From positions 11,494-75,493 of the forward strand of contig PLLH01000118.1 in assembly GCA_003140895.1 (NCBI GenBank): 64,000 nt of DNA, given 5' to 3'. This DNA comes from Elusimicrobiota bacterium (GTDB lineage Bacteria; Elusimicrobiota; Elusimicrobia; F11). The position numbers and the translations under genes were made by a program. This document shows positions 1-19,674 of this stretch, piece by piece (position 1 is the stretch's first letter; every line of letters begins with the position of its first letter). The notes below the pieces were generated by a model. That model made no database searches. It saw only the letters and a list, made by a program, of their open reading frames with translations, and had not been told where the DNA came from.

Positions 1-255
1 TCCCCTTTTTTAAGTTGATGGACTTTTTCCGTCACCTTCCCGACTTTCATCACGCTCACTTCCAAAACATCGTTGATGGATGGTTTGGAGGACGGCGTAA
101 AAGGGGATTCCCCGACGCCCGGAATGGTCAGCTCAATAAATTGTCCGGTGCGGAAGGGGACCGGCTGCTCCGGTTTAAACCGAATGGTTTTAATGGTCGG
201 AGTCTCGGCGGTGACTTCCAACACCTCCGCTTTCAGAATCCGATAGGGATTTTTC
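1..255 (-). CDS. FAD/NAD(P)-binding oxidoreductase subunit (ferredoxin-NADP-reductase fold; AsrB/HydG/PyrK-like). Only the N-terminal part is in the window and the gene continues past the window start.
   Basis: Minus-strand ATG at 255..253 overlaps the stop of the upstream gene (ATGA coupling). Translation begins MLEKNPYRILKAEVLEVTAETPTIKTIRFKPEQPVPFRTGQFIELTIPGVGESPFTPSS, a typical FAD-binding beta-barrel of FNR-like electron-transfer subunits. Confidence 0.55.
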
Positions 256-1290
256 TCAAGCATTGGCAACCAGCCTCTTCAAAACTTTTCGGATATCAAT
301 TTTGGCGGGGCAGGCGCTGATGCAGCGGCCGCAACCGGTGCAGGCATACACCTTGAGCACTTTGGGGAAGAAGTCAAACTTCTTTTCAAAACGGTTCCGA
401 AGCCGCATCCATAATCTTTTCCGGGGGTTCGCTCCGCCGGCCACCCGAGCGTAATCTTTAATCATGCAGGAATCCCATACGCGAAGGCGGGCCATCTTTT
501 TATCATCTTTCTGATCGTAGAGAAAGAAACAGTGGCAGGTGGGACAAATATTGGTGCAGGCTCCGCACTCAACACAGGTCTTGGCTTCTTCTTCCCAAAT
601 TTTGGAGGCAAAGTTCCGTTCGATGATTCCTTGAAACTTATCCTCGGTGGGAACCTGAAATTTTTTGAGGTTCTCTTCAACGGCCCGGGTGGTTTTGGCG
701 CGCTGCTCTTCCTTGGCCCGCAACTCGCTTTCGGCGGCATTTTTAAATAAGGAAGGATATTTTTCTAAAAGCGCTTTCCCTTTCTCCGACCCTTCTTCGA
801 CCACGTAACCTCCGGGAACGGTGGAGAGGTTCAAGTCAAAATCCCGATGGGGATAGGGTTTAATTCCAAGGGCGATGCAAAAGCAGGTGTCGATGGCGCA
901 GGTGCAATCGGCGCCAATAATTAGATTTTTCTCCCGGTTGTGGATATAAAAAGGATCTTCGAGACCGTTATTTTTAAAAACGAAATCCTGAATTTGAAAC
1001 CCTTTCAGGTCGCAGGCCTTAACCCCCACGATGGCGTACGGTTTGTGATTTATTTTGGGCGGTTCGGCGGAAAAATTCTCGGCCACGAATTCTCTGGCGC
1101 GAGAGAAAAAAGCTTTGAGCGGTTCGAAGGGCCGGACTTCTCCGACGACAGGGTGGTCATTGGCATTAACGAATTTTTTGAAGAACCGCTGAGAACCGTT
1201 TTTAACGGGGAAGAAAACGTCGAAGTCAAAGGACAACTTGTCCAGAAAGCCGGTGAAATCGGCATCCTTAAGAATAAAACTTTTTCCCAC
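256..1290 (-). CDS. 4Fe-4S dicluster protein, anaerobic sulfite reductase subunit A / sulfhydrogenase beta (AsrA/HydB)-like.
   Basis: 344 aa with two CxxCxxCxxxCP ferredoxin motifs (CVECGACTNICPTC and CTGCGRCISACP). GTG start at 1290 is preceded by AGGAG. Gene is tightly coupled to the downstream FAD-subunit gene. Confidence 0.6.
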   Translation of the reverse strand: MGKSFILKDADFTGFLDKLSFDFDVFFPVKNGSQRFFKKFVNANDHPVVGEVRPFEPLKAFFSRAREFVAENFSAEPPKINHKPYAIVGVKACDLKGFQIQDFVFKNNGLEDPFYIHNREKNLIIGADCTCAIDTCFCIALGIKPYPHRDFDLNLSTVPGGYVVEEGSEKGKALLEKYPSLFKNAAESELRAKEEQRAKTTRAVEENLKKFQVPTEDKFQGIIERNFASKIWEEEAKTCVECGACTNICPTCHCFFLYDQKDDKKMARLRVWDSCMIKDYARVAGGANPRKRLWMRLRNRFEKKFDFFPKVLKVYACTGCGRCISACPAKIDIRKVLKRLVANA

Positions 1291-1361
1291 CCTGATTCTC
1301 CTTTAGGCGGTCAACTATTTAATTTAGGATTTGACGCTGGATTGTTTAGGAATGCACGATG

Positions 1362-1389
1362 TTTATACAAATTTTCGCAATAGCGTCAA
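1362..1389 (-). promoter_or_regulatory. Candidate sigma70-type promoter for the Fe-S/FAD oxidoreductase pair.
   Basis: Minus-strand TTGACG (reverse complement of 1384..1389), a 16-nt spacer, then TATAAA (reverse complement of 1362..1367). It sits about 70 nt upstream of the GTG start in the 129-bp gap after the giant gene. Confidence 0.3.
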
Positions 1390-1419
1390 AAGTTTTCCAT
1401 CTTTTGGAAAAAGGAAAGG

Positions 1420-4400
1420 TTAAGCGGCTTTTAACGTTTGACTGGTTTCGTCGACGGAGCGTTGAACGTCCGGAGCCCAACGGGCCGAGAGAGCTTTGAG
1501 GAGTTCGTCGATCAAGAGATAAATCGTTTCTTTTTGGAGGAAGATTGAATTGGAGTCGAGGCCGTTCCAATTAAAGGCGGGCGCGTTTTGAGATGAAACG
1601 ATATTCATGGATCCATGCGCCTGAATGATTCGCGCGACGATCGGGAATTGAACCGCGTTTTCTCCGAAATACGTTTCCAATGTTTTGAGGCGCCATTCCC
1701 CCCCTTGCAAGGCGCCTGTTTGGTCCCCGTCCACAACGGAAACAAATGCCGGATTCACCAGCCCCCTTAACCGTTCCGCCAAAGCGTTTGTTTGAGCGAC
1801 CAGCGTTGTTGGCGTATGCGGGTCGAGGCTTTTCACGAGTTCTTCGAGGTGGGCTTCCAGGCTTGGATCGACGAAAATGAGAGTTCCACTGTTTTTCCTG
1901 AGCGGATCGGTTCGAAGAGTTTCCCCCAACCCCAGGTTGATCGGCGTCCCTTTCAGCAAGGACTCAAGCACAATTTGAGTGGGTGACATCGGAACCTTGC
2001 GGTTTGAGTTGTTAACCGCGCCGATTCTGTTCATGCAGGATAGTAGTGGTTTCACCAACAGGAATGATCCTACAGGCGTGAGGATGCCCCAAACTATATT
2101 GATCCCACTGAGCAATTTGGAATAAAGAATAGACAGAGAGCGTGCCAGCGGGTTGTAAACCCAATAGAGAGCGCGAGAAACGGAGGGTCGCGTTTCCACG
2201 CGGACCAATGGGATCTCCGGCAGGGAACTCGAGGCGTTCCAGTCAGGATCGAACAGCTTGTCATAGCTTGAATGCCAGTGGTGGTTGTGTCGCGCCCATT
2301 CAATAATTAAGTTGTCAATTTCTGAATAGTTGAGGTGAGGGCCGCCCTTTTGCGCCAAAAGGTCTCCTATGGCTCGCATATCATCCATGGAAAATGGGCT
2401 CATCCCCGGAAGAGGCTTGCCGGTTAATAAGTCTCGCCCATCCATTAGTCTGCCCGTGAGCAAGAGCACGTGATTGGAAAGATTTACGTGGTCTATAATC
2501 ACCGCACCTAAGCAAGCAAAGATGATTGCGCGCGTGAGGAGAGCTGGTTTGTCCTCGATCCCTTTTCCACTAAGCGCGGCAGATTGAGCCAGATGGATTG
2601 GGTTGTTGTAGTCTTTTGGCAACTGATCGGCATACGCGGCGACGCGATAGCCGTGGTCTCTCAATCCCTCTAATTCAAAAATGTGAGCACCTCCACGGAC
2701 AACGACCAACGCTCCAGAAGGATGTTCCCGCTTGTAGTCATCAATTTGATTCATCAATGCCTGGGCCCGTAATTCCAACATCTTGGCTTGGTCCCTTGAA
2801 AAAGATGCATATTCGTCCATGGCTTGATTTAAATGCCCTTGCCGGAAATGGTCAATGGCCAAGAAGTAATGAATTTCCGACAGGAAGTTGAATCGGACTG
2901 TATCTCCTGTTGGTATTTCTTCCAATGTTTGAATGTCACTTATGTTTTTTAAATGTTCATTCATTCGGGATATAAGCGGATTCTTCGGCTCGGCGGAATT
3001 CGGAGTGCGATTATACCAATCGACATATGCGCTCATTCCGGAGGCATTATTGCTGTCCTCAAGCAGGGCGATAAGATCTGGAAATTCAGCGTGGTCCTTC
3101 CATCTCTCGGCAAAATTAAGAAGGGCGTTAATTTCCGTATCCGTCAGCCCTGACTGACTTTGTTCCGCGCGAAACGACTCTCGATTATTTCGATATCTCG
3201 TTCCAAGAACATTCATATCGCGGTCAAAATCGTTGTAAGGACCTCCCCCACTCTCCTGCAAAACAGCGACTGACAGAGCCCCTCGTTTGCGGGCGTCTTT
3301 AATTGCTTCTTCAACGGAAGAGCTCATATGGTCATAGTCACCCTTTCTCCCGTGAGGTCCCAGTACGTAATAAATAAAGTCATGCTGTGGGTTCTGAATG
3401 AAGTAAGTGAGCGATTTCAGGAGAATAGCGATCACGATTGAAAAAATAACTGAACCCGCAATCCAAAAGCCGAGGGTTGGGTTAAGAAATGTAATGACGG
3501 GCCATGACAGAAGGGCGATGGCGGTTGTTAATTCGAAAACCGTGAACCCGTCGCGGGGGCCGGGCTTTTTGTGTGGCGCTTTCTGAATGAAGTTATCCAC
3601 TTCGTCTGTCAGTTTTTGTTGCCGGTTGTGGCGCTTGCGTTTTTCTTTCACGTCTTTCCCACCCATCCGAAGACTGACAATTGAATAGATGAGAACGAGG
3701 CCGAGCAGAATTCCCATGGTAACAACGGCCACAAGGGAGGCGTAAAAATTCGAAGCCAAACTGACGGGGGACCATCCCTGCTTAAAGTAATTGGTCAACC
3801 CGGCGGAGGCAACGATACTCAAGATAACAATCGTTTTGACGGGCCACGAAAGACTGTAGTCTGCTTTGGCGAACCGGTAGAGGAAATAAAAGAAAACAAA
3901 GGTCACAAACCACAGAATGTTGGTGGCGATGTTGATGGGTCCCATCATCCAGGAATTGGAGAGGGTCCCCACCATCAGAAACGTGGCTAGATAACCAATG
4001 AGGAGCAAGGTGGCGGAGAAGGAGAACGAATCTTTTTTCTGGTAGATGCGATCCAAGGACTTGCCGTGGCTATAGCGGCTGATCACCACTCCTAAGAGCA
4101 AATAGCCCAGGATACACAACGGGATGGAGATGATGAGCGTCAATAGGAAAGCCGGTAAGAGATCATTTCCTGCGACTCCAACGCCCCGGCCCAAATTGAG
4201 ACTCCTCTCAATCTCCCTCATGCTCCGGCCTTGCGCCCATAAATTCTGCCCTTGCGCCAAAATCCCAGTGATGGTTGCCCATAGTAGAAGAAGTTTTGTC
4301 GTTTGTCCGCCCAAGTGGGCGCCATCGGCGGGCGAATCGGCGGTTTCGGAAGGACGAGTGAAAACGACCAGGGTGTCAGCGTCTATTTGTTTATCGCGAT

Positions 4401-7400
4401 CAGCGTAGCCGCTAAAGCCTGGGAGAAAGCCACCGAATTTCCCCATGTGCCCAAAGGACAAAGCCCAGCGACCCTCTTTGCCGGCGAGTTCAGTTTGAAG
4501 CAGGGCCACCATGCGTTTGTCCTCCTCTAGGTTAAAGGAGGCGAGGAGTTCAGCCAATTCAATCCGCGCGGGTTTGCTTCTGGCCCCCTGGCCCTGATCG
4601 GACACGACGATTCGCCCCCCCGGTTTCATCAGCGCGGTCAAAACCCCGACGTCCGCCGGAGTCAACCCGATCGGATTCAATTTGCTCCTTGTTTCAAGAT
4701 GAAGGGTCCCGACGCTCCCCGGTTGAATCAGCGTTGGAAGCTGCGCTATGGGGCCAAAGTGAACCTTGACCTTGTCTTCAACGTCAATGACCAGGGCCGC
4801 TTTTTTAAGAAACCGCGCCCATTCCGGTTTGGTGGTAACAAAAACGACTTTGCGGGAACCCTTTTTGATTTCAGGCAAAGTGAAGAGGCCATGGAAGTTT
4901 GAACCGATGTCCAGATAAAGAGAGGCGGAGTTCCCCGGATTTTCGGCGTCATGAAGAAAAGGAGGAGTCTCCGCGGCATCCCACAATTTGTTCATATCTC
5001 GCCGGAGAAGGAGCGCGTCGCTCGTGGCGCGGTAATCCAACAGTTTGTTGGCGAAGGCCGGGTCGCTTTCGGCCCTGGAAAGAATGGCGGGAAAAACGCT
5101 CGGAATTTTGATATCGGGAGTGGATACCTTCGACACCCTTCCCTTCGTGGCCGCTTTTGCGGCGGCCCGAATTCGCGCCTGAAAAACGGTCTTGGCGTAC
5201 TTTTCAGAGAGCTCCGGTATCGATTCGAGAAGAGAAACGAAGAGATCTGAATAATTATGATCGGGGAAACGCAAGCTGAGATAATAATATTGGCTGGCCA
5301 CATCGGCGAAAGAATATCTCGTGCCAGAAGAGATCCCGCGGAGATCTTCTTCCGGGTCGGAGCGCCTTTCCATGAATTGCCTTTGTACTGATTTCCCCAT
5401 CATTGCCAGTTCGTGCTTGAAGTAGGCGTCTCTTTCTTGGGGGTCGGTGGGAATAGTGGAGGCCAACTCGTCCCATCCCTCCGGCTTTTCCAGGCAATCA
5501 AGAAAGACGTTGTATCGCCCGGCCAGAAACAGAACCAAATTCACCAAGGACTGAATGGTTTCCTTGTCCCTTTTCTTTGGAAAAAGAATGACAGTTTGCA
5601 CCCAATCCAACGCGTCATCCTCGAGAATGATTTTTTCCTCTTGAAGGAGTTTTCCTATTTCGTTCCCGATGTTTTCTGCCCATTGGGGCGGATTTCCTTT
5701 GATCTTTTTTGAAATTTCTTTGAGTTGATTCTTAAACTGAGGGAAATCGCCTTGGGCGCCGTCAATTTGGCGTTTGAATTCTTTAAGTGATAAAGAATTT
5801 TTCTCCGCGGAGTTGCTGTCGCTCAACCCCGGCAAGGCAACAGTCGCCCCCAGCATCAAAATTGACCCAATCCACAGACCCAGAAGCGGACTCATCCAGG
5901 TGATTCCGGCCCACGAAAAGAGGCCCATGGCCACGGTGAGTTCGTTCAACGCAAATCCGTTCCGTGAGCCGGGCTTGTTGGGTCGTTCCGATCTCATTGC
6001 CTTCGATTTATTAGCGTTAGCAAGATCGATACGCGACACCATGGGATAGACGCTCGTCTCAACCCCATCAATCGTTTTCTTTTTCGCATGGGGAGGCTGA
6101 GAAGCGTGCTGGAAACCTTCAGAGAGAAAGAACGGGAGATTTTCAATGGATCTCTCCGGGACGGCAAGGATGATTTTTTCATTATTTACATACCGGGCGG
6201 AGTTCTTAACGTTCTCCATCAGGCGGTGGCCCACGCCCAAGCGTCGGTAGTCCGGGTGAACGCCAATTTCCGCTATGGATTCTTTCCCCTCTCCATATCT
6301 AAACGCCACGGCCCCGATGATGTGTCCGGCAATCGTAGCGACCCGGGTCTCGATCTGGGCGTCATGAGCGGGGGAAAAGACGTCTCTTCCGTTGAACCAG
6401 GGACGATCGCTGCTGAACTCATCCCAGAGTATATCGGCCATATCTGATCCATTTGTTTCCATCATCGGTCTTATATGTAAAAAATCCTGGATCAATTTTT
6501 TACGAAAAGCGGGGTAATCGACAATTTGGGATTGTGTTAACTCAAGCGTCTTGTCGAGCAGGATTTTAGAGATTGAGTCGGTGATAAGCTCTGCTCGTCT
6601 CGGGAGCGCGTCAACGACTTCATAAGCAAGGTCTTCAATCGGAAGACGGGCAATCCGCGCGCGATCCGAGGTTGCGTTAAAGAAGGAGCGGCGTTCATAC
6701 TCATTCGGTTTGGGTCCCCAAAGGGAGGAGCGCTCTTTTCTGATGCCTTGTTCGTCATAGGACCAGTTGGGATGTTCTTTGAAAAATACCAGGCGCTCCA
6801 GAATTTGCCTTAACGAATGCGGGTCGAGATCAGGCCGAAGCGCGAATTTCGTCAATAACGTGAGAGAATTGGGGGTATTTGAACGCGCCAACACGTCTTC
6901 AAAGATTTTCCTTTTCCCTTCCTTGTCGGCGGATCTGAAACGCGTCATTTCCGGCGGTTCGGAGTGCTTTGTTATAGGGGTTCTGTCGCTATAATTCATG
7001 TTGGAAGCGTCAAATATCAGATGAGAGATGAGTGCCCAATAAGGCGAAGCGCCGAGGTAGGGAAGAACGGGATAGAGAGCAAAAATAAAAAGGCGAACAA
7101 GATTGATCCAGCGAAGCGGCGGCCCGCGGATGTCGGAGTTGGGGTGAACCCACTCAAAAACGATGTGAGCGGCAAAGAGCGGAATGAGCCACGCGAGCGC
7201 GGCAAAGATTCCATAATTGTTTGTGAGCCACGCCGCCAATGCCCCTTCCCCCGCCGCCCAGATCAGCGAAGCGGCTGAGATGAGCGTATGGGTTGTTTCC
7301 TCGCTGAACTTGGCTGAGATCCAGTCGTGAATCGCCGGAAGCGTGAGGATGAAGTAGATGAAAGATAAAGGGACTGTCCCTTGAGAACCGGACCCATTGA

Positions 7401-10400
7401 CACGGCCAAGCGTTCGTGTTTGGACGATGGTGATGGTCCAATGGCCAGGCTGCTGCGGGTCGGCTGTTATGACGACTTCGATGTCCCGGGGATTTTTTGC
7501 TTGAGCCTCCGTTTGCTGGCCGATCTCGCAGAGGGACCGGATCAAGCGATTCGCGTCGGGAAGTTTTAAAAATTCCTTCGTAACGGGAATGGTTTTTGTG
7601 CCGCCGGTTTTGGAGAGAACCGAGCAGCGTTTTTTATTTCCCGGAGATTTTTCGACAATCCTGTTGCGCGTCTTATCCCAGATGATCTGGGTTGGAGATC
7701 CGGCAAATCGGTTGTCATCTCCAACCAGCGATTCCCCCAAGCCCTGAACGGCCTCGATCACCAGATGGCTGGGTTCATTCAGGGCCACATCCGAAGTATG
7801 GATGACACATGAAAAATCCGCCGGTAAAGACGGAACAAGCCAGGCCGCCGGGAAAACGGTCGTTTCATTAATCTGATACTTTCGTCTATTCTCGAAGGCC
7901 TCGTCGGTCCAAACCGAGGCCATCACCTTTTTAATGGCGGGCCAGAAGGCGCGCTTTCCAACAATGTGCGGGATGGTGAGATAAATCCCCGCTCCAACAC
8001 CCGGATATTTTTCAAGATCCTGGGCGTTTGTTGAATCTCGGACAAAAGTCCCTTTTTCCCATTGGGGGTGTCCTTCCGCCTGTTCTAGCGTGGTCCAAAA
8101 CCGAGGGGCCAGGGCGTTTGTGTTTAATCCCATTATAAGACGTCTTATTTTTTTAAGTGTTTGAGCAGCCTGGAGTCCTTCGGCTCCGGTGAGTGATTGA
8201 ATCAGTTTTTTGAAATCAGCATAAACTCCGTTTTTCTTTAGAAGGTGGATAAAGGTTCTATAGGGGATTCCCACTCCTTTGGCGAACTCCGGGTGAATAC
8301 GGGGATCGGACAAGCGAGGGGAGTGGAGGGAGAGACGATTGACTTGAGCCGGTTTGTTGCCGACGACATTGGGCCGGACCATCTCGGGATCATTTGGGGC
8401 GAGGAAATAGTTGTCGCCTTCCAGCGTGACGGAGGGCAGTTGAACTTTGATGCGCCGGGGTTTTGAAATCCGGGGAAGATCGGATTTCGTCGCTTTTCGA
8501 ATGGAGGCGGACCGGTTTGTCACAGTGAGCACAACCATCTGGCCGTCGAGAGACCTTAGTAATTCCGGCCCGGGCCAAACGGCGAGAGGAATATTGTCGG
8601 CCAGAGCGCGCGCCCGGGCGTGTGAGGTTTTTCCCTCATTGATAAAAGTGACGATGCCGTTAAAACGGCCTTCGATATCGACGTAAGACTTTGGCAGAAA
8701 CTTCATGGCCACGATAGAGTTGCTTGGAACCCTCTTCAGGGCGGAAAGGGAAGGCTCTTCCCCCTTTATAATTTGAAGCTTCCCAACTCCTGTACCGGCG
8801 AATTCGGGGGTTGGTTTTTTAACCCGCTGGGGAGCGTAAGAGGTCGGTTGAGCGAATATTTGTGAAGCCTGTTTCCCCTCTGGTTGGAGTTTTTTTGAGA
8901 GGGTATTGATCTCCTCCATTGTTTCCCGCAATTTTTCTGCATAATCATTTGGGCAGTAGCGTTTCTGTAAAAAATCAGCTATTTGTTCGCCGAGTTTCGT
9001 TAAGAGAGTTTCATCGTCTATGGCCGAAAGAATTATTTTGCTGTTGTTTGGGTTAAGATAGCCGAATAAACCGGCAATCCCGCTTAAATTGTACTGAACC
9101 AGGTAGGTGTCTCCCTTAAATGTCATGGGCGCGTTTCTATTTTTGAGAGCCAATCCGCGTTTCACAATTGCGCCGAACAAGTCCATCTCCATCTTCCCGG
9201 ACTGAACTGTCGATTCCCATCGTTCGTGATTTCCCTTGACGCAGGCGAGGATCGTCGCCGCCAGATCCGGGTACCAGTAATATATGGCCCGCAAGGTGTT
9301 GGCGGCCGAGTCAAAAACGGGGTGATTGAGAATAAAAATATCGCCGATGCCCTGGATACTGTTTCCTTCTTTTGAGAATGGGAGAGTAGACTCGAAAATG
9401 TGCTCAACTAATTCTTTCTCGTAGTCCGGCTTTGGCCATTTTGGATTCCAATGTTTCGGGCCGGTTTTTTTCGGATTTGAAAGGGAAAGCTCCGTGCGGC
9501 CAAGATTGGCGAGCAATAGAATTTGGAAGAACTTCCTTAGCGTTTGGAGAACAGCGGGCGGCGCGCGGCCTGGGTAGTTTTCCCCCCACTGAACCAGCCC
9601 GTCGTTGGTGTAGTGGGCGAGAACAAGAAGGACGCTGGCGATCGAAAGTGGAAGCCATGGGTTCCAATCAATGGCGAGGCCGAGAACGCTCAAAATCCCG
9701 AAGGAGATGAAAAACACCTTTCGGAGCTGGTTGACGGCCGCGGCGCGGTTCTGAGAAATTAACTTTAATTCCTCAGCACTTAGCGTTTCCCGCTCCCCTC
9801 GCGTCACGGTATGAAGCCAGACGAAAAATGATTTATTGACCCACAAGCCGAGGATGAACAGAGAAGTTGACGCGACGGCGACAAGAACAGATGACAGTAA
9901 CGATAGAGACGTGGGGCCATAAACGCCGAGTGACCAAAGTAACCCCGTAAGAGGAAGGCCCAGTGGGATCACGCCGAAGACAAGGGACTCCAGGCCCGCC
10001 AGATAGTGGCGGTAGGGCCCCCATTTGAACAGGCTGAGTTCGCTCTCCGGCATCGACGTTGCCGATAGTTGGGCCATGACCGCGGCATGCTTAGCCTTAG
10101 TGATGGCCTGCTGGCGGTCGGCGAAATTGTCGAGCAGCGCTTGTTCTCCCATGAGTGTTGGGTGGGCCGCCACTTCTTCAAGAAGGGTATCAATCGACTC
10201 TGGGATGGCCGTCTCCCTTAAAATCTCAAGGATGGATTCGCCCATGCTTTTGTCATCAATCATCTCAGCCATAAAGCCTATACCCTGTACACCAGCCGTA
10301 TTCCCAATATGGTGATCGACAAGAGGAGGCCTTTCAAAGACGACTTTCCCTGCTCTCACTCGTTCTGTGGCGTAGGACATCATTGCATTGAGATCGTCGG

Positions 10401-13400
10401 TGATTGCTTTGGCTCTGGGAAAAACCCGCTTTACGCCAGCCAAATCCCCTTTGATGGCGGATAAGCGTGTTTCCTTAATTATCTCGCGCAGTTCTCTCAA
10501 ATAGGGAATCATCAAAGAGAAGAATTCGGCAGAATCTGCGATTACCTCATCTGGAACCACTCGTTTTTGAGGAGTCTCATCTTCCTGGTTCCCCCAATGA
10601 GGAAAGATGGGTTGGTAAGCGTGGAATCGTTGGGTTTTAAGAAGACGGTTCAGAACCCGCGACGTGTTCATCCACAGCAGCCAGCGGTGAATAGATCCAA
10701 GCCCTTTATCTTTCTCTTCAATCTTATTCCAATCAATAAGAACGTCGAGCAGGGGAATGTTTTGGCCTCCGATCTCGATTTGAGCGTCCTTATGAATATC
10801 CTCCAAAAGCTTGCTTAGGATTTCGATCAGTTTTGTGTTGGGATCGACACCCGGGTCGCGGACATATCTGTTGTAGAGGGCTCGTCTTTCTGAGGGCGTC
10901 CACTGCGTCCAACCACTCTTGAAGTTCTGCCTTCGGTTTGGTGGGAAGAACAGAAGAAGGATGAAGTCGTTTATGATTTCTCGGATCCTAACCGTTATTG
11001 GATCGGCGGGATGATCCCCCTCAAGGACGTGTATGGTTTCTTCCAGGAGTGACTTGTGCCAGTACTTGTAGTGGGGATCGACGATGACGATCCTTTTCGC
11101 ATCGGGATCAATACCGAGCGCCTCAAGAACTTGCCGTGGGGAAACATCCAATCTTTGCGCGATCACTTGAAGGTGGTCGTTGGTCAAATGGGTTCCCCAC
11201 GCGTGGGTCTTTCTCTTCCAGCCCTCATTTTCAATCGGGGAGTGCGTCCCGCCCCCGACGAATTTGCCGATGTAGAAAAGTTGATCCTCGGATCCCCAAG
11301 GCATCAATAATCCGTAGGCTGGATCGCCGACCTGAGGAAAAAGAACGGCCACCCCTTCGTTTTGCAGAATCCGGTGGAGGTCCTCGGCTGGGGGTAATCC
11401 CGGGATGGGAGAGCTTAAGGAGATTTCCCTTTGTTGTCGCCGGCTTTTCTCATTTTTCTTGTCCAACAAAGTGTCCCCTTTAGAATCGGTACGGGTGCCT
11501 TTCACAACGTATGCGGGATCCTTGACGAGCACGGTCGCGATGGCCTGCTCAAACCCTGTTCTCCGGGCCAGTACCCCCCCGATTTCATAGGCTTTCTTGT
11601 GTTTTTCAGGATCCCTATTTAATAACTCTAAAACCACGTTTGCTAAATACTCACCGTATTCATAACTAAAACCGGGTTCCAATTTAAACCGCCCGGTGAA
11701 CCTCGAAAACCAGCTTTCGTGCCGCTTGGCCAACTTTCGAAACCCCTTCTCCCAGGAGGAAGGCGGAAATTCAGCGATGATTTCACGGACGGTCTTAGCA
11801 CTTGATCCGCCATAGTGGCTGGTTGATATCCCCAATTCAGCGGCTCGTATGGTTCGAAAATAACTGGCCGCAAAAGCGTTCGAGCGGTCTCCCATGGCTA
11901 GGATTGGAAATACAACGTGGGTGAGCTCATGGAAAATATTCGCACGCAAGGAGGACTCATCAGGGAACCGCCACTTGAAAACCAATACTTTTTTACTGAA
12001 GTTCAGCTTGACTCCGTTGGCGCCCCGAAGGGTTTGAACCGTCGCTTTAGCTCCAAACAACAAAGACCAAAAACCAATCATCTTCAAAATCGGGATGAAA
12101 TCCCAGCCGATCAAAGAAAACGGCAGAAAAACGATGGCGAGCGGAACAAACCAGAATAGAAACTGAGGCACAATTAATCTTCGAAAGGCTTGCCACGGAC
12201 TTGAAGCGACTTCAACTGTCCTTCTTAACGGTTTTTCTAATCTCCTCCCTTTTGAACTTTCGGCATCCCCAGGAAAACCCGTCACCTCAATAAAGTGGCC
12301 CACTTCCTCCCGGACTATTCTTTCGTCGGCGGAAATTTGGGACGCCGGGTTCCTTGCGGCCATAACGTGAGCGTCAAATGGCATGTGGAAAGGAAGAGCA
12401 AAGTAGGGTGAGAATCCGAAACGAGGGAAAGCAATATAGAGAGCAAAAATAAAAAGGCGAACGAGATTGATCCATCGGAGCGGCGGCCCGCGGATGTCGG
12501 AGTTGGGGTGAACCCACTCAAAAACGATATGAGCGGCAAAGAGCGGCATGAGCCACGCGAGCGCGGCAAAGATTCCATAATTGTTTGTGAGCCACGCCGC
12601 CAATGCCCCTTCCCCCGCCGCCCAGATCAGCGAAGCGGTTGAGATGAGCGTATGGGTTGTTTCCTCGCTGAATTTGGCTGAGATCCAGTCGTGAATCGAC
12701 GGAAGCGTGAGGATAAGGTAGATGAAAGACAAGGGAGTTGTCCCTTGAGAACCTGACCCATTTATAGACTTGATACGTCTTTCGACTCGCTCCTTGGTTC
12801 CCAGCTTTGTCACGATACCCTTGGATTGTTGATTAATCGTGTTTTCAGGAGGGTGTGAAATATTCTGGCGGAAGGAATTAATTTCCAATATGCGGCTCCG
12901 AATGCGTCTAAACAATTCATCTTTCGAATCGCTTGAAGATAAGGTTTGATGAAGATCGGATCTTAACCGTTCCAGAGCCGGGCCATATTCGTCCTTGCGC
13001 AGTCCGCCACGGGCAATATACCTGGCTCTCATATCATGGAATCGGTTCATCTCCCCCATGAGTCTTTCGATAAAGAGATACCTTTCTACGGGCTTGACAT
13101 AGGGTCGTCTAAAGAATTCCAGCATAGACTCCACTTTATCTTGGACTGTTTCATGGACAAGTTTATGGAACGAGATTAAGATTTCTCTTCCAGATGCGGG
13201 ATGGATAAGCAGAGGTTTTCTGGTTTGGATAAGTGTTCTTTCTTGAACCGTAATCTGAAGATCATTCGTTGCGCTTATTAACTTCTGCTTCAGCCTTTCT
13301 ATGAACTGAAGTTCCAAATCACTGTCCAGAAAATGCGAAAATTGAATATCCAAGTCATCCACCGCTGAGAATGGGACGTAACCCTCTTCATCCTGGAGGT

Positions 13401-15687
13401 AAAATGCGCTCCCATAGGCTTGCGCCAAAACCCGTTGGCCATCGGGAGCCACCATCTCATCGGCGGTTTCCTGAATCATTTTCCGAAGAAACCCGAAATT
13501 GATTTCGTAATTTTTGAATCCCTTCTGTCTCGCAAAAACGGGATTCTTTATCTCAGCCAAGGAAAACCCCGAGAAACTATCGTTATAGAATAGTGACGCG
13601 GAGGTCTCTCTCCCCGATATCCGGCCCGAGCCGGGTCCGACATCGGGTTGGGAAGAATCCCTCATCATCGCCATCCCCACCACAAACGGCGCCATTGAAA
13701 GGAACGCGACTATTTCCTTTGCGTGGATCTTCATCCAATCCCAACCGAGGGCCATCCATTCGGGGTAAAGCAGGCTGACGAGGGCGCTTGTTGTGAGGAG
13801 GGCTGAGAGAGTGAGAGGGGTGCGGATGCTCTTCATCCCCCATTTTTCATCAATGGCAATCGTTAAAGATTTGGATGTGCGATTTGAGAGGGCCGTGATG
13901 TGGATAAGACCCGCTTTGGCGAGGTGGATTGTTGCGCGGGAGGCGATCCTCATTCTTCTTAAAACTTTCTCAACGTATTGTTGCGCGAACGGAATGCCGA
14001 TGACTTGTTTCATGACGCCTCGAGCGGCGAAGAAAAGGCCGGCTTTGGCGAACGCTGGGTTGGACACGGGCTCTTGGGCCAGGAAGAGTTTTTCCCCTTC
14101 GAAGAGCTTTTCAAGCGGGGTTTTCTCCTGAGTGAAGACGCTCAGATAGGTTGCCCCCGTTGATGAGTCCACTTTGGTCACTTTGGGAACAACGGTGATG
14201 GTGGTGAATCCGGCGTCCTGAGCCAGACGGTTGATCCCGCTTGAGTGATAGCCGCCGGTTACAAGAACCGCCACGTTGGTTTTATTCTCCCCCATGGTCC
14301 TTAAAAGGTTATTCGCCATCAAGGTGTCGCGCGCGTCGGCTTCGGAGTAAAATTTTTCAAACGGCGAAAAATTTGGTTGATGGTCTATGGACTGATACTC
14401 TTTCCACTCTTCTTTCGTGAGTCCAAAGTCGAGAAGTTTTCCAACAAGATACAGCCGCCGAGACTCTGCGACATCTTTTTTCTCGTCGTCCGTTCGGATC
14501 AACGACGCGTAGGTCGCGTCTTCTAAGTTGCTGATTTCTTGATGTAGCTTCTCCGCATCAATGGAGTCGGAGAGAAGGACATACTGGAGGTAATCGAACA
14601 TCGCTTTGTAATACGAAAGGTTGACGCCTTGTTTCTCGCACATGGTTTTTAAGGCTTGGTAGAAATCAGCGTGGTTGAGTTGGCCGAGACGGAACGCCAA
14701 CGTCAAATTAACGAGGGGTTGCGTTTGGTCGGCCGGCAGCTTCCTGAGGAGTTCCTCCAAAAGTAGAGAACGCTCCCGTTCAACGCGCGCGAAATCCAGC
14801 GACTTTTCAAGTTGGAGGGCGCGAAGGAAGTTGTTGAAATTGTGCCCGGGCACTTTTTTGTTATTGAACGAATTCAATAACTGCGCGTAGTCACCAAGTG
14901 AGAGGGTCCCCCTTTGGTACGCCTGGACGTTTCGGTCAAACGCTTTTAAATCGGGATTAAACCGGGTTTCTTTTTCTGCCGCCAGCGTTTGTTCAAGTTT
15001 TGCCAGTTTTTCTTTTTGGGTGGCGGTCTGCGGCGCGGATTCGCGGACGGCGTTGACGTTCGCTCCGTAGCGCGCGGCATCATCAATCCCGACGTACGGT
15101 GGCGGGGTGAGTTCGGAGACGAGAGCCGTATGAATCGGGCCTGAAATGGCGTTTTCGGCAAGCAGATGATCGGCTACCTCGCGGATGGTTTCTTTGTGAG
15201 GAAATTCTCTGAGGAGCGAAAGATCGAGCGGGGCGAAGGCTCCTTCGAGAGCCACCAGGTCCACCCGTTGTTTATTGATGAGCGTTTGGATTACGGCGGC
15301 GATGTTTTTCTGGGCTTCCCCATTCATGTGGATGTCTTGAACATGAATGATGATTTTCTGCTGAGAGCGGGACGCGGGCCTTGAAACAGAACGGATGCTC
15401 CCAAATTGAAGCGGGATGGCGCTTAATACATTTTTCAGGGAGAGGTCTTGCACATCTTTTGCCCATTTGTTGAAGTGGACATTCGCGGATAACGTGTCGG
15501 CAAAATTTGTTGGGAGCGAGGAATGGGTGAATCCCGCCACGGCGGGTAAACTCGCCAATTGGACGGATTTTTTTCGTTCCGTCCAGAAATCGGTTTCTGC
15601 TTTGTAGGCGAAGAGACAATTGGTGGAGAGAAGGGCCATGGCCAAGGCCATTGTGAGGCATCTTGAAAAGAAAGACGTATGCTTCAA
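1420..15687 (-). CDS. Giant (4755 aa) mosaic multidomain membrane protein. In order: signal peptide; Tiki/TraB/ChaN-like domain; transmembrane helices; repeated TM module; HExxH motif; phosphohistidine swivel plus PPDK_N nucleotide-binding (dikinase) module; second copy of the TM module; GNAT acetyltransferase domain; further TM clusters; second Tiki/TraB-like domain.
   Basis: A continuous 14,268-nt ORF without stops. TTG start at 15687 follows GGGAGA. N-terminus MKHTSFFSRCLTMALAMALLSTNCLFA is a signal peptide. Motifs seen in the translation: IIIHVQDIHMNGEAQ ... VLVTGGYHSSGINRL (ChaN/TraB-like, residues ~110-510); IFHELTHVVF (HExxH, residue 1253); IVTFINEGKTSHARARALADNIPLAVW (PEP-utilizer swivel, His ~2356); VVGNKPAQVNRL ... 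SVWTDEAFENRRKY ... VIEAVQGLGESLVGDD (PPDK_N, ~2440-2680); IIGAVAFRYGEGKESIAEIGVHPDYRRLGVGHRLM (GNAT, ~3115-3160); ALVVVRGGAHIFELEGL (second TraB-like GGxH motif, ~4330). There are multiple hydrophobic stretches. Confidence 0.8.
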   Translation of the reverse strand: MKHTSFFSRCLTMALAMALLSTNCLFAYKAETDFWTERKKSVQLASLPAVAGFTHSSLPTNFADTLSANVHFNKWAKDVQDLSLKNVLSAIPLQFGSIRSVSRPASRSQQKIIIHVQDIHMNGEAQKNIAAVIQTLINKQRVDLVALEGAFAPLDLSLLREFPHKETIREVADHLLAENAISGPIHTALVSELTPPPYVGIDDAARYGANVNAVRESAPQTATQKEKLAKLEQTLAAEKETRFNPDLKAFDRNVQAYQRGTLSLGDYAQLLNSFNNKKVPGHNFNNFLRALQLEKSLDFARVERERSLLLEELLRKLPADQTQPLVNLTLAFRLGQLNHADFYQALKTMCEKQGVNLSYYKAMFDYLQYVLLSDSIDAEKLHQEISNLEDATYASLIRTDDEKKDVAESRRLYLVGKLLDFGLTKEEWKEYQSIDHQPNFSPFEKFYSEADARDTLMANNLLRTMGENKTNVAVLVTGGYHSSGINRLAQDAGFTTITVVPKVTKVDSSTGATYLSVFTQEKTPLEKLFEGEKLFLAQEPVSNPAFAKAGLFFAARGVMKQVIGIPFAQQYVEKVLRRMRIASRATIHLAKAGLIHITALSNRTSKSLTIAIDEKWGMKSIRTPLTLSALLTTSALVSLLYPEWMALGWDWMKIHAKEIVAFLSMAPFVVGMAMMRDSSQPDVGPGSGRISGRETSASLFYNDSFSGFSLAEIKNPVFARQKGFKNYEINFGFLRKMIQETADEMVAPDGQRVLAQAYGSAFYLQDEEGYVPFSAVDDLDIQFSHFLDSDLELQFIERLKQKLISATNDLQITVQERTLIQTRKPLLIHPASGREILISFHKLVHETVQDKVESMLEFFRRPYVKPVERYLFIERLMGEMNRFHDMRARYIARGGLRKDEYGPALERLRSDLHQTLSSSDSKDELFRRIRSRILEINSFRQNISHPPENTINQQSKGIVTKLGTKERVERRIKSINGSGSQGTTPLSFIYLILTLPSIHDWISAKFSEETTHTLISTASLIWAAGEGALAAWLTNNYGIFAALAWLMPLFAAHIVFEWVHPNSDIRGPPLRWINLVRLFIFALYIAFPRFGFSPYFALPFHMPFDAHVMAARNPASQISADERIVREEVGHFIEVTGFPGDAESSKGRRLEKPLRRTVEVASSPWQAFRRLIVPQFLFWFVPLAIVFLPFSLIGWDFIPILKMIGFWSLLFGAKATVQTLRGANGVKLNFSKKVLVFKWRFPDESSLRANIFHELTHVVFPILAMGDRSNAFAASYFRTIRAAELGISTSHYGGSSAKTVREIIAEFPPSSWEKGFRKLAKRHESWFSRFTGRFKLEPGFSYEYGEYLANVVLELLNRDPEKHKKAYEIGGVLARRTGFEQAIATVLVKDPAYVVKGTRTDSKGDTLLDKKNEKSRRQQREISLSSPIPGLPPAEDLHRILQNEGVAVLFPQVGDPAYGLLMPWGSEDQLFYIGKFVGGGTHSPIENEGWKRKTHAWGTHLTNDHLQVIAQRLDVSPRQVLEALGIDPDAKRIVIVDPHYKYWHKSLLEETIHVLEGDHPADPITVRIREIINDFILLLFFPPNRRQNFKSGWTQWTPSERRALYNRYVRDPGVDPNTKLIEILSKLLEDIHKDAQIEIGGQNIPLLDVLIDWNKIEEKDKGLGSIHRWLLWMNTSRVLNRLLKTQRFHAYQPIFPHWGNQEDETPQKRVVPDEVIADSAEFFSLMIPYLRELREIIKETRLSAIKGDLAGVKRVFPRAKAITDDLNAMMSYATERVRAGKVVFERPPLVDHHIGNTAGVQGIGFMAEMIDDKSMGESILEILRETAIPESIDTLLEEVAAHPTLMGEQALLDNFADRQQAITKAKHAAVMAQLSATSMPESELSLFKWGPYRHYLAGLESLVFGVIPLGLPLTGLLWSLGVYGPTSLSLLSSVLVAVASTSLFILGLWVNKSFFVWLHTVTRGERETLSAEELKLISQNRAAAVNQLRKVFFISFGILSVLGLAIDWNPWLPLSIASVLLVLAHYTNDGLVQWGENYPGRAPPAVLQTLRKFFQILLLANLGRTELSLSNPKKTGPKHWNPKWPKPDYEKELVEHIFESTLPFSKEGNSIQGIGDIFILNHPVFDSAANTLRAIYYWYPDLAATILACVKGNHERWESTVQSGKMEMDLFGAIVKRGLALKNRNAPMTFKGDTYLVQYNLSGIAGLFGYLNPNNSKIILSAIDDETLLTKLGEQIADFLQKRYCPNDYAEKLRETMEEINTLSKKLQPEGKQASQIFAQPTSYAPQRVKKPTPEFAGTGVGKLQIIKGEEPSLSALKRVPSNSIVAMKFLPKSYVDIEGRFNGIVTFINEGKTSHARARALADNIPLAVWPGPELLRSLDGQMVVLTVTNRSASIRKATKSDLPRISKPRRIKVQLPSVTLEGDNYFLAPNDPEMVRPNVVGNKPAQVNRLSLHSPRLSDPRIHPEFAKGVGIPYRTFIHLLKKNGVYADFKKLIQSLTGAEGLQAAQTLKKIRRLIMGLNTNALAPRFWTTLEQAEGHPQWEKGTFVRDSTNAQDLEKYPGVGAGIYLTIPHIVGKRAFWPAIKKVMASVWTDEAFENRRKYQINETTVFPAAWLVPSLPADFSCVIHTSDVALNEPSHLVIEAVQGLGESLVGDDNRFAGSPTQIIWDKTRNRIVEKSPGNKKRCSVLSKTGGTKTIPVTKEFLKLPDANRLIRSLCEIGQQTEAQAKNPRDIEVVITADPQQPGHWTITIVQTRTLGRVNGSGSQGTVPLSFIYFILTLPAIHDWISAKFSEETTHTLISAASLIWAAGEGALAAWLTNNYGIFAALAWLIPLFAAHIVFEWVHPNSDIRGPPLRWINLVRLFIFALYPVLPYLGASPYWALISHLIFDASNMNYSDRTPITKHSEPPEMTRFRSADKEGKRKIFEDVLARSNTPNSLTLLTKFALRPDLDPHSLRQILERLVFFKEHPNWSYDEQGIRKERSSLWGPKPNEYERRSFFNATSDRARIARLPIEDLAYEVVDALPRRAELITDSISKILLDKTLELTQSQIVDYPAFRKKLIQDFLHIRPMMETNGSDMADILWDEFSSDRPWFNGRDVFSPAHDAQIETRVATIAGHIIGAVAFRYGEGKESIAEIGVHPDYRRLGVGHRLMENVKNSARYVNNEKIILAVPERSIENLPFFLSEGFQHASQPPHAKKKTIDGVETSVYPMVSRIDLANANKSKAMRSERPNKPGSRNGFALNELTVAMGLFSWAGITWMSPLLGLWIGSILMLGATVALPGLSDSNSAEKNSLSLKEFKRQIDGAQGDFPQFKNQLKEISKKIKGNPPQWAENIGNEIGKLLQEEKIILEDDALDWVQTVILFPKKRDKETIQSLVNLVLFLAGRYNVFLDCLEKPEGWDELASTIPTDPQERDAYFKHELAMMGKSVQRQFMERRSDPEEDLRGISSGTRYSFADVASQYYYLSLRFPDHNYSDLFVSLLESIPELSEKYAKTVFQARIRAAAKAATKGRVSKVSTPDIKIPSVFPAILSRAESDPAFANKLLDYRATSDALLLRRDMNKLWDAAETPPFLHDAENPGNSASLYLDIGSNFHGLFTLPEIKKGSRKVVFVTTKPEWARFLKKAALVIDVEDKVKVHFGPIAQLPTLIQPGSVGTLHLETRSKLNPIGLTPADVGVLTALMKPGGRIVVSDQGQGARSKPARIELAELLASFNLEEDKRMVALLQTELAGKEGRWALSFGHMGKFGGFLPGFSGYADRDKQIDADTLVVFTRPSETADSPADGAHLGGQTTKLLLLWATITGILAQGQNLWAQGRSMREIERSLNLGRGVGVAGNDLLPAFLLTLIISIPLCILGYLLLGVVISRYSHGKSLDRIYQKKDSFSFSATLLLIGYLATFLMVGTLSNSWMMGPINIATNILWFVTFVFFYFLYRFAKADYSLSWPVKTIVILSIVASAGLTNYFKQGWSPVSLASNFYASLVAVVTMGILLGLVLIYSIVSLRMGGKDVKEKRKRHNRQQKLTDEVDNFIQKAPHKKPGPRDGFTVFELTTAIALLSWPVITFLNPTLGFWIAGSVIFSIVIAILLKSLTYFIQNPQHDFIYYVLGPHGRKGDYDHMSSSVEEAIKDARKRGALSVAVLQESGGGPYNDFDRDMNVLGTRYRNNRESFRAEQSQSGLTDTEINALLNFAERWKDHAEFPDLIALLEDSNNASGMSAYVDWYNRTPNSAEPKNPLISRMNEHLKNISDIQTLEEIPTGDTVRFNFLSEIHYFLAIDHFRQGHLNQAMDEYASFSRDQAKMLELRAQALMNQIDDYKREHPSGALVVVRGGAHIFELEGLRDHGYRVAAYADQLPKDYNNPIHLAQSAALSGKGIEDKPALLTRAIIFACLGAVIIDHVNLSNHVLLLTGRLMDGRDLLTGKPLPGMSPFSMDDMRAIGDLLAQKGGPHLNYSEIDNLIIEWARHNHHWHSSYDKLFDPDWNASSSLPEIPLVRVETRPSVSRALYWVYNPLARSLSILYSKLLSGINIVWGILTPVGSFLLVKPLLSCMNRIGAVNNSNRKVPMSPTQIVLESLLKGTPINLGLGETLRTDPLRKNSGTLIFVDPSLEAHLEELVKSLDPHTPTTLVAQTNALAERLRGLVNPAFVSVVDGDQTGALQGGEWRLKTLETYFGENAVQFPIVARIIQAHGSMNIVSSQNAPAFNWNGLDSNSIFLQKETIYLLIDELLKALSARWAPDVQRSVDETSQTLKAA
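7072..7398 (-). repeat. Copy 2 of the 327-bp intragenic direct repeat (residues 2764-2872). It lies exactly 5364 bp (1788 codons) from copy 1, in the same frame.
   Basis: Near-identical DNA and peptide to 12436..12762. The alternative-frame ORFs 7017..7214 and 12315..12578 (both beginning MESLPRSRGS...) mirror the repeat. Confidence 0.9.
12436..12762 (-). repeat. Copy 1 of a 327-bp intragenic direct repeat (about 95% nucleotide identity) encoding a ~109-aa multi-TM module. It corresponds to residues 976-1084 of the giant protein.
   Basis: The DNA string atagagagcaaaaataaaaaggcgaac...gtcccttgagaacc recurs at 7072. The encoded peptide NGSGSQGTTPLSFIYLILTLPSIHDWISAKFSEETTHTLIS...RWINLVRLFIFALY is nearly identical in both copies. 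Confidence 0.9.
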
Positions 15688-15873
15688 AATGATTTCTCCC
15701 GAAGGAAGGAATAAGCGAAACGATGAATTCGGCTCTTATTAAGGAGAGATTTTACTCGAGGGGTGGTTAAGATCGTCTTAAGAACCTGTAAACAACTAGT
15801 AAATTATATTCCCCTCTTGAAATAACCGCGTTTTTTGTTAGATTTAAGTGTAAGTTCAGCAGAGGAGTCATTC

Positions 15874-16164
15874 ATGTTTCAATTCATTAAAAAAGTAGTG
15901 AATTGGTTCAAAGGGGACGCGGTTCCGCCAGTCCAGGCTGCCGCCGAGACGTCTCGTAAGGTTGCCGAGGCAGCCGCTCAAAAAAGAACCCCGGCTCTCT
16001 CGCCAACGGAAGATGTGTATAGGAAAATTATTGAAGACGCTCGCGTGGGCGATTTTTTGAAAGAACTTCAGTCCATCCCCCCCGCTACAAAGGAATTTGA
16101 AAAGTCCAAAGAAAACATGGTTCAAGAATTAAAGAAACTGAAATCTCCGAAACCCCCTCAATAA
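15874..16164 (+). CDS. Small hypothetical protein (96 aa from the ATG at 15874).
   Basis: ATG preceded by GGAG (agaggagtcattcATG). Lys/Glu-rich with no recognisable motif. The ORF track starts earlier at 15835 but has no RBS there. Confidence 0.4.
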   Translation: MFQFIKKVVNWFKGDAVPPVQAAAETSRKVAEAAAQKRTPALSPTEDVYRKIIEDARVGDFLKELQSIPPATKEFEKSKENMVQELKKLKSPKPPQ

Positions 16165-16527
16165 ATGGCTTCCTCCGACCGCAGAGAATCAAACCGGTTT
16201 CAAACCTCCTTGCCCGTCGAGATTCGTTTCTCCCCGGACGGCGTTCCGATGCAGGGAAAAAGCCTCGACATCGGTCCGAACGGAATGAGGTTGTTGACGC
16301 TTCAGCCGCTGGTGGAAGCCACTCTGATTCACATTTCTTTTCAGAACGCTTCCAACAACACCCACTGCGAAGGGCGCGTGGTGTGGACGCAACGGTCGGA
16401 AGACAACACGGAATTTGAAAGCGGGGTTGATATTCAGCGGTGGGGTGGCGGTGTTCCCGGTTCCGACGTCATCCACGAGATCCCGGATCTAAAACAGAAG
16501 AAAGACCGCCGCAACAAGTCTCGTTAA
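16165..16527 (+). CDS. PilZ domain protein (c-di-GMP binding).
   Basis: RRESNRFQTSLPVEIRF ... GKSLDIGPNGMRL matches the PilZ RxxxR ... (D/N)xSxxG signature. 120 aa. Confidence 0.6.
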   Translation: MASSDRRESNRFQTSLPVEIRFSPDGVPMQGKSLDIGPNGMRLLTLQPLVEATLIHISFQNASNNTHCEGRVVWTQRSEDNTEFESGVDIQRWGGGVPGSDVIHEIPDLKQKKDRRNKSR

Positions 16528-16545
16528 GACAGCCTTCCTCCCATA

Positions 16546-19500: not shown

Positions 19501-19674
19501 TACTTCCGGAGACGCCCCTTCCCATGTGACCTGAACCGAGATGACGGGAAAGTCCACGTCGGGGAGCTGGCTGATGCCGAGGCGCGTAAAGCTCAACCAG
19601 CCGAAAAACATGAGCCCGAACATGAGCATCCAGGCGAAAACGGGATTTTTTATGGAGACGTCAGAGAGTGTCAC
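16546..19674 (-). CDS. RND efflux transporter permease (AcrB/HAE1 family).
   Basis: 1042 aa. N-terminus MTLSDVSIKNPVFAWMLMFGLMFFG is the typical AcrB opening. Two large periplasmic loops and 12 TM helices are evident. Start overlaps the OMF stop by 4 nt. Confidence 0.9.
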   Translation of the reverse strand: MTLSDVSIKNPVFAWMLMFGLMFFGWLSFTRLGISQLPDVDFPVISVQVTWEGASPEVMETEVTDTIEDAVIQVQGVKEISSISRQGQTSISVEFELSRDIDAALQEIQTKIAQAQRNLPKDIDPPIVTKTNPEDQPILWLGLSGNRDLKYLMQYTKDVVKDQFTTVSGVGEVTLGGYLEPNLRVWLDADKMEKNELTVDDVTSAISTEHAELPAGTIDTGRNELNVRVMGEAASVEEFRTLVIPRRSGSPIWKKFHIGDVAQVEDGLEDARRFSRTNGLPGVGIGIKKQRGSNAVDVANRVKERLAQIQKNLPNGIHLDVNFDSTKFIKDSTHELNFNLILSAILTSIVCWLFLGSFSSAFNIILAIPTSILGTFIVLYFLGFTLNTFTLLGLTLVIGIVVDDAIMVLENIVRHKEEGARRVHAALVGAREITFAAMAASIAILAVFIPVVFMSGIVGKYFFQYGVTISVAVMLSLFEALTLTPMRTSQFLETGHTTWIGKQMDHWMKGLANTYRRILNLCLDNRWKVIGISVLMFIASLSLWIPLKKEFVPSQDQSILMLRIQTPVGSSIEFTDDVFKKVEAYLTAQPEVMRYFGSVGGMGGAVVNQGFVFVTLKEPGDRPLRPGAKKRFSQQDFMNQARKDLKQIPGLFRAVTQDLSLAGFTSQRGFPIEFTIRGSDWDKMAGFSQQIMDKMNASGLMVDVDTDYQLGMPEVKVVPNRQKAAERGVSIQAIANAINASIGGIRVGKFTRGGKRYDIRVRFAEQFRQKSSDINKIWVRNNRGEVIRLSEVVGISEKPTLLSISRRNRERAIGVFANVAQGKSQAEAIDAVQKMGKEILPEGYRLVISGSAQTFKDSFTSLFLALALGILVAYMVLGSQFNSFTHPFTVLLALPFSITGAFIALWLGHKSINLYSFIGMILLMGIVKKNSIMLVDFTNERRKKGQPLREALMEACPIRLRPILMTSVSTIAAAIPPVIGMGPGGETRVPMALVVIGGVLVSTLLTLLVVPCVYSLLARFESHKHDADLKEALKELGELPNT

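Follow-up and report, generated by a model that had tools for sequence, protein, structure and literature searches.

Two near-identical segments within a giant Elusimicrobiota gene are probably a gene-conversion tract in an older duplication of an orphan membrane module

Why should a single gene carry two almost identical stretches of coding DNA that lie thousands of nucleotides apart? This question is raised by a 64,000-nucleotide stretch of DNA from an Elusimicrobiota bacterium (contig PLLH01000118.1, positions 11,494 to 75,493 of the forward strand; hereafter the window), in which a pair of direct 327-bp repeats lies within one giant open reading frame (ORF). An earlier note on this DNA had proposed recent duplication or ongoing gene conversion as the origin of the repeat and had suggested that the pair could serve as a built-in modular or phase-variation mechanism. 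We find that the two segments probably record gene conversion between copies of an orphan membrane module that had been duplicated within the gene at an earlier time. The mechanism, conversion between paralogous segments of the same gene, is ordinary and belongs to the textbook; the gene itself is an unusual orphan.

Compared without gaps at an offset of 5364 nt, or 1788 codons, the two copies (Table 1) are identical at 311 of 327 nt (95.1%), and identity at the same offset outside the repeat region is ~25%, the level expected by chance. A repeat finder reported the same pair as the sole direct or inverted repeat of at least 40 nt in the 64-kb window, which excludes chance as the source of the match. 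Both copies share one reading frame in a single uninterrupted minus-strand ORF, as the earlier note had described, and the peptide strings that it quoted are correct; the encoded segments share 104 of 109 residues and differ at five. The longest exact run common to both copies is 91 nt (7184-7274). On the N-terminal side the edge of the repeat is sharp, with no similarity between the copies in the 16 codons upstream. On the C-terminal side, homology runs on ungapped for 25 codons, with 12 of 25 residues identical; over 28 residues from the same start, 12 of 28 were identical, with a BLOSUM62 score that was not attained in any of 100,000 shuffles. The claim that the flanking sequence is unrelated thus holds for the N-terminal side and fails for the C-terminal side.

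To compare the two parts of the repeat we counted synonymous and non-synonymous differences by the method of Nei and Gojobori. The high-identity core contains 10 synonymous and 6 non-synonymous differences, corresponding to a proportion of synonymous differences (pS) of 0.12-0.13, a synonymous divergence (dS) of 0.13-0.14, and a non-synonymous divergence (dN) of 0.025; the resulting dN/dS ratio of ~0.2 indicates purifying selection on the core. For the next 25-42 codons past the core, pS was 0.84-0.87, dS was saturated, and dN was 0.5-0.7. Because constraint at the protein level cannot lower dS, the DNA ancestor common to the two cores must be much younger than that of the tails, which are aligned in the same register. 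A core of low dS that directly abuts a saturated, in-frame homologous tail therefore points to a conversion tract laid over an older intragenic duplication, and of the two origins first offered for the repeat, conversion is retained and a fresh duplication between unrelated flanks is not. Differences within the core sit near the edges of the tract (counts in Table 1), and a scan statistic for this clustering was exceeded in 9 of 300 permutations (p about 0.03). The segment from 7115 to 7334 may be a younger tract nested within the first; such a mixture of ages would be compatible with the distribution, for which the evidence is marginal.

These results suggest a simple history, in which a helical membrane module of ~135 residues would have been present twice, as long-diverged paralogous copies, in one giant multidomain membrane protein, and non-reciprocal homologous recombination, in one event or a few nested ones, would have overwritten 109 codons of one copy from the other. 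The old divergence would have been kept in the 25 codons at the C-terminal end of the module and in all sequence outside it. Conversion probably occurs simply because the copies are still alike enough to recombine, and each event would favour the next. Products of crossover or deletion, which would lose 1788 codons including the ATP-grasp region, are presumed to be rare and to be lost.

We also searched for relatives in which the behavior of the module could be compared. A HMMER search with residues 2400-3300 against 1.84 billion representative proteins returned 1071 matches, most of which share just the ATP-grasp region and many of which are themselves very large (2000-7500 residues). The module was present in only two of these representatives: P0001, which is the same protein (residues 2328-4755, 100% identity), and P0003, a protein of 3130 residues. 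P0003 has two module copies (residues 1459-1591 and 2186-2318) that are 727 residues apart, its inter-module content differs from that of the giant gene and is without PPDK_N, and its first ~640 residues match the N-terminus of the giant protein at 46% identity. The two ENA assemblies with the giant gene also include, on different contigs, the gene for P0003 (P0155 represents this gene called with a longer start); the P0003 locus (L002, 6206-15598) has no synteny in common with the giant-gene locus, and the tetranucleotide correlation of its contigs with the window is 0.97-0.98, compared to 0.99 within the window. The likeliest reading is thus that P0003 is a paralogue encoded by the same genome or by one very close to it. 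P0155 has a further internal repeat (...VPVYLPIPSL(A/S)T.GVGA...PWLVLM...), near residues 730-770 and directly after module copy A. P0156 (2265 residues), which might have been a shortened form of the paralogue produced by deletion, proved to be a C-terminal fragment that keeps both modules. The module alone had no word-index match in an index of 5.8 billion proteins, which apparently omits this genome's own proteins, and it was absent from GTDB species-representative genomes and the JGI metagenome collection when these were queried with residues 2460-3210 and with an alignment of the four module sequences. By their names, the proteins homologous to the N-terminal domain, and those homologous to the product of the neighbouring purA, all come from Elusimicrobia or Elusimicrobiota metagenome-assembled genomes (MAGs).

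Comparison of the four module copies places the events in order. The two copies of the giant gene (G1 and G2) are 95% identical in protein sequence in the core, with a core dS of 0.13, and 48% identical in the tail; the two copies of P0003 (PA and PB) are 73% identical in the core, with a core dS of 0.63, and 64% identical in the tail; cross pairs between the genes are 60-62% identical in the core, with a core dS of 0.9-1.4, and 44-52% identical in the tail. Module copies thus cluster by gene in the core. Because the tails of G1 and G2 are as divergent as tails compared between the two genes, the copies in the giant gene appear to be as old as the split of the two genes. This pattern fits concerted evolution of the module copies, with what would be a more recent event in the giant gene. 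In addition, the dS of 0.63 between the P0003 copies shows that the low dS of the giant-gene core is not a property of module DNA as such. Between the two P0003 copies, a 257-nt stretch is 87% identical within an overall identity of 77%. A first-to-first and second-to-second correspondence of the copies in the two proteins (ALP.H against A.ISH in the tails) would depend on one or two sites, and we did not rely on it.

Several points weigh against gene conversion within an older duplication. The comparison of tails rests on 25 codons. The uneven spread of differences across the core is only marginally significant, in a test that was run after the clustering had been noticed. Conversion is deduced from a pattern of divergence in a single genome population. 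The recovered assemblies may come from the same or related read sets (L007 equals L002 at 100%), which would make them weakly independent checks on consensus artefacts. Finally, P0003 is a paralogue rather than an orthologue, and the apparent concerted pattern could in principle reflect independent duplications in each gene.

The last point but one bears on the alternative that the identity of the copies, or the second copy itself, was created in a short-read metagenome by reads that were mis-joined or cross-mapped between regions or strains. The source is an environmental metagenome assembly (record WOOD18-1_SAMN07125095_METAG-scaffold_64), giant genes with repeats are known to be broken up or wrongly joined in assemblies (bioRxiv 10.1101/2023.11.21.568195), and one assembly does carry a homopolymer indel within the giant gene. 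In that assembly, the 117-kb ENA contig L001 matches window positions 1-18707 save for a substitution at 249 and the indel at 8782-8784; loss of 1 nt shifts the frame and yields two gene calls, of 2294 and 2428 residues. The statement that the repeat lies inside one gene is thus true of the window and of three other contigs, which encode an uninterrupted product of 4743 residues, and is not true of L001. The three intact contigs, together with a frame that stays open for thousands of codons on both sides of the indel, suggest that the single-ORF form is likely to be the functional state; the indel in L001 is either an error of sequencing or assembly or a true variant in the population that disrupts the gene. 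Position 249 is A in the window and G in the ENA assemblies L001 and L003, indicating that the window represents a further, third record from this population.

Across the repeat itself, by contrast with the indel, the evidence goes against an artefact. All recovered records, including contigs of 117 kb and 169 kb, are identical across both copies, and the 16 differences between copies are reproduced exactly in these two contigs, which have different break points. An uninterrupted ORF of 4755 codons crosses both junctions of both copies, the differences have the synonymous-to-non-synonymous balance of coding sequence (10 to 6), the paralogue independently has the two-copy architecture, and the 91-nt exact run is below typical read or large-k lengths. 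We therefore consider it very unlikely that the repeat is an artefact of assembly or consensus; the earlier warning of an assembly hazard was a fair one, and the hazard appears to be small.

Less probable still is the proposal that the in-frame repeats exist to excise residues 1085-2872 and so provide a shorter functional isoform by programmed or selected modular variation. The deletable interval does hold the HELTH motif (residue 1253), a transmembrane (TM) cluster (residues 1896-2006), and PPDK_N (residues 2468-2762), as had been stated. The copies are direct, in frame, and share exact runs of up to 91 nt, a length sufficient for RecA-type recombination, and the conversion tract itself shows that the two copies recombine. 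There is also a precedent in the mycolactone polyketide synthase (PKS) genes, in which near-identical interspersed modules yield deletion and swap variants (PMC2569948). On the other side, spacing by a multiple of three, which the earlier note had taken as a clue, follows automatically when the same peptide is read twice in one ORF. The expected deletion product of ~2955 residues was not among the members of the 90% identity cluster, which are of 4743, 2428, 2294, and 419 residues only, and all four recovered contigs, a small sample of assemblies, carry both copies with no deletion form. No recombinase, invertase, or silent cassette lies beside the gene on the AcrB/PilZ side or within ~10 kb past it on the Fer4 side, there are no tandem repeats, and the window contains no other repeat of at least 40 nt. 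The loss caused by a deletion between direct repeats is permanent, in contrast to classical phase variation. The modules of P0003 have a different spacing and different intervening content. Moreover, the 5.4-kb interval has been kept since a conversion old enough to have gathered a dS of 0.13; because the copies recombine and the interval has nevertheless persisted over this time, deletion products have probably been counter-selected. Thus, a built-in variation mechanism is not supported, and we regard it as highly improbable.

A single recent insertion of a 327-bp cassette at an unrelated site, or extreme constraint at the nucleotide level from an embedded RNA or DNA element, can be set aside as having hardly any chance of being correct, since the sharp N-terminal boundary with unrelated sequence upstream and a core GC content at third codon positions of 0.63-0.64, slightly above the gene average of 0.57, are the features that suggest it, whereas a random insertion leaves unexplained why the target already had an in-register, in-frame homologous tail (48% protein identity, saturated dS), there are no terminal inverted repeats or target-site duplications at the repeat, no tandem array, and no copies elsewhere in the 64-kb window, the RNA fold of the repeat is ordinary (z = -1.3) with no Rfam match in the gene, and the module copies of P0003 have diverged normally at synonymous sites (dS 0.63), so that no element is conserved at the level of nucleotides.

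What, then, is the module that was converted? It is a helical, hydrophobic unit of ~135 residues, with hydropathy peaks in both copies. An AlphaFold2 (AF2) model built from the four known copies was all-helical, with 5-6 helices, a mean predicted local distance difference test score (pLDDT) of 70.8, and a predicted template-modelling score (pTM) of 0.50. Sixty-six columns are invariant across the four copies, including an AAGEG...ALAWL.PLFAAHI.FE.VHPN..IRGPPLRWINL block and an H..FD motif in the tail. Copy 2 had no Pfam match at E <= 10, copy 1 had only a chance-level match to PEP_mutase (E = 0.21), and the module had no significant profile or fold match to known membrane domain families in Pfam, NCBIfam, or the PDB. 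A CPBP/Abi-like identity, judged by eye, was ruled out by the wrong spacing of motifs. The module is thus a conserved helical domain, hydrophobic and so far undescribed, in which several polar residues are buried. The invariant His, Glu, Asn, Arg, and Asp residues lead us to infer that it is a membrane-embedded functional unit between soluble enzyme domains, perhaps an anchor or an intramembrane site. A more specific idea, which we think unlikely, is that the module, to date seen in just two paralogous giant proteins of a single Elusimicrobiota lineage and with V or I at the variable site of its FAAHI(V/I)FE motif, is an intramembrane domain always paired within one polypeptide, whose copies form a pseudo-symmetric membrane unit with halves kept matched by concerted evolution, in a protein that would be a small archaeovorin-type relative outside the Omnitrophota.

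The giant ORF that holds both copies comprises 4755 codons from a TTG codon and is called in public records (P0152) as 4743 residues from an ATG at 15651, which is probably the true start. Only two Pfam domains exceeded threshold, PPDK_N and GNAT. The PPDK_N region matches ATP-grasp chains of phosphoenolpyruvate (PEP)-synthase and rifampin-phosphotransferase (Rph) type in the PDB (E = 4e-8). The deletable interval had been said to hold an entire dikinase module; the ATP-grasp part alone was detected. Upstream of the ATP-grasp, a swivel domain (PEP-utilizers) fell below the cutoff (E = 0.22; 11.6 bits against 23.1), PEP-utilizers_C was not found, and every full-length dikinase model in NCBIfam scored far under its cutoff. 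PADLOC gave no defence-system match for the giant protein. The ~20 hydrophobic segments lie in several clusters.

Table 1. Coordinates in the window of the repeat copies and of other features of the giant gene.
Feature	Position	Strand	Evidence or remark
Repeat copy 1, high-identity core, residues 976-1084	12436..12762	-	311/327 nt identical to copy 2
Repeat copy 2, high-identity core, residues 2764-2872	7072..7398	-	begins 2 codons past the end of the PPDK_N match
Module copy 1 tail, old, unconverted in the proposed history, residues 1085-1109	12361..12435	-	48% protein and 52% nt identity to copy 2 tail, pS 0.87
Module copy 2 tail, old, unconverted in the proposed history, residues 2873-2897	6997..7071	-	homologous to copy 1 tail
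Most homogeneous stretch of the core (central 220 nt)	7115..7334	-	4 differences in 220 nt vs 12 in the other, outer 107 nt; holds the 91-nt run
Giant ORF with N-terminal signal-like segment, ~20 hydrophobic segments, PPDK_N and GNAT	1420..15687	-	ORF list, Pfam, hydropathy
PPDK_N (ATP-grasp of PEP-utilising enzymes), residues 2468-2762	7402..8286	-	PF01326, 73.8 bits, cutoff 27
GNAT acetyltransferase domain, residues 3083-3197, downstream of copy 2	6097..6441	-	Pfam; YpeA-type GNATs in the PDB
HELTH (HExxH) motif, residues 1253-1257	11917..11931	-	single HExxH; no family match
C3 run (G3 in gene sense)	8782..8784		C2 in L001 (about 9923), where the ORF is split with one repeat copy per part

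Other parts of the giant protein were noted in passing. After the signal-like segment comes an N-terminal domain of ~540 residues (window 13798-15651, residues 13-630), which has a sub-threshold match to Tiki/ChaN (PF04187; E = 0.0016). The same domain heads a family of Elusimicrobia MAG entries, mostly truncated and labelled 'hypothetical protein, partial', at 37-49% identity, and it also heads giant proteins with other downstream content, for example P0009, in which a glutamate dehydrogenase domain and PPDK_N follow. No second copy of this domain was found at the C-terminus by hidden Markov model, despite a similar-looking GG.H motif there. Upstream of module copy 1, at window 12900-13500 (about residues 730-930), a G-S-x17-D-D-L-D pattern resembles a Pol-beta-type nucleotidyltransferase by eye and has no Pfam match. 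An older internal repeat pairs window 5833-5976 with 3424-3567 (residues 3238-3285 and 4041-4088; 44% protein identity, E = 1e-10), and its copies read KPG.R.GF(A/T)..EL followed by a hydrophobic helix, resembling a prepilin-type cleavage/methylation signal. Matches to the corresponding models are below threshold (TIGR02532, E = 0.67; prepilin peptidase-dependent protein model, E = 6e-4, far under its cutoff); such a signal, if real, would suggest that prepilin peptidase cuts the polyprotein.

The giant gene is flanked by AcrB and PilZ genes on one side and, for ~10 kb on the other, by Fer4, oxidoreductase, and hydrogenase/Mbh-like genes. Relatives with PurA proteins that are 78-79% identical keep the ubiD-ubiA-HAD-purA-carA-carB block and have no giant gene downstream of it, indicating that the giant gene is lineage-specific. 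In these relatives (L005/L006, 15834-17200), carB is directly followed by a pair of small genes, one for a 94-residue protein and one for PilZ, and by miaA. At window 15688-21005, an OEP-AcrB efflux pair and the giant gene intervene and the PilZ pair is inverted relative to L005/L006, a layout that indicates a lineage-specific insertion or rearrangement.

Gene conversion between dispersed paralogues is well established in bacteria, for example between tufA and tufB and among rRNA operons. The giant gene shares with these systems a tract of low synonymous divergence bounded by older divergence and, if conversion is the cause, a non-reciprocal exchange that leaves gene order intact; unlike them, both partners are within one ORF and the homologous unit appears to have been converted only in part. 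Recombination also underlies phase or antigenic variation at pilE/pilS and vls, and repeats mediate deletions in the alpha C/Rib surface proteins. Repeated coding DNA in or near a gene provides a recombination substrate in these cases, as it may in the giant gene, in which, unlike in these systems, we found no silent cassettes, tandem array, recombinase, observed variants, or reversibility, and in which the repeated unit would be a membrane-embedded segment rather than a surface epitope.

The closest mechanistic analogue appears to be the homogenised interspersed modules of giant modular genes, best exemplified by the mycolactone PKS genes. Domains of mlsA1, mlsA2, and mlsB are >98.5% identical, which has been ascribed to replacement through recombination, and this homology also gives rise to deletions (PMC2569948; PMC2730631). 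As in the giant gene, near-identical domain segments lie in frame, not in tandem, and kilobases apart within very large genes, and the copies cluster by gene or strain rather than by position, which has been attributed to gene conversion or domain replacement. The giant gene differs in that it has two copies of one small membrane module (109-135 residues) at 95% identity, is not a PKS or non-ribosomal peptide synthetase gene, and has yielded no observed variant products or deletions.

In gene type, the giant protein resembles the archaeovorins, TM-rich giant membrane proteins of the Omnitrophota with lengths of 10-85 thousand residues and with PPDK_N and GNAT among their listed domains (bioRxiv 10.1101/2023.11.21.568195). 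Compared by description, both have a very long ORF, many predicted TM helices among divergent enzyme domains, and PPDK_N with GNAT, in mostly unannotated sequence encoded by a gene that tends to fragment in assemblies. Unlike archaeovorins, the giant protein is of 4.7 thousand residues, its host belongs to the Elusimicrobiota, judged by the names of neighbours and homologues, and no SecA_DEAD, C39, or S8 domains were detected in it. We do not file the protein as a member of the archaeovorin family.

For those who annotate such genomes, the locus carries a warning, as a homopolymer indel splits the gene in one public assembly and the repeat could confuse binning or assembly. It offers no route to a new variation mechanism unless read data reveal deletion variants. 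It does provide what is probably a clean, well-bounded case of intragenic gene conversion in an uncultivated phylum, and it draws attention both to an orphan membrane module and to giant, TM-rich, multi-enzyme proteins that form a lineage-specific, archaeovorin-like family in the Elusimicrobiota.

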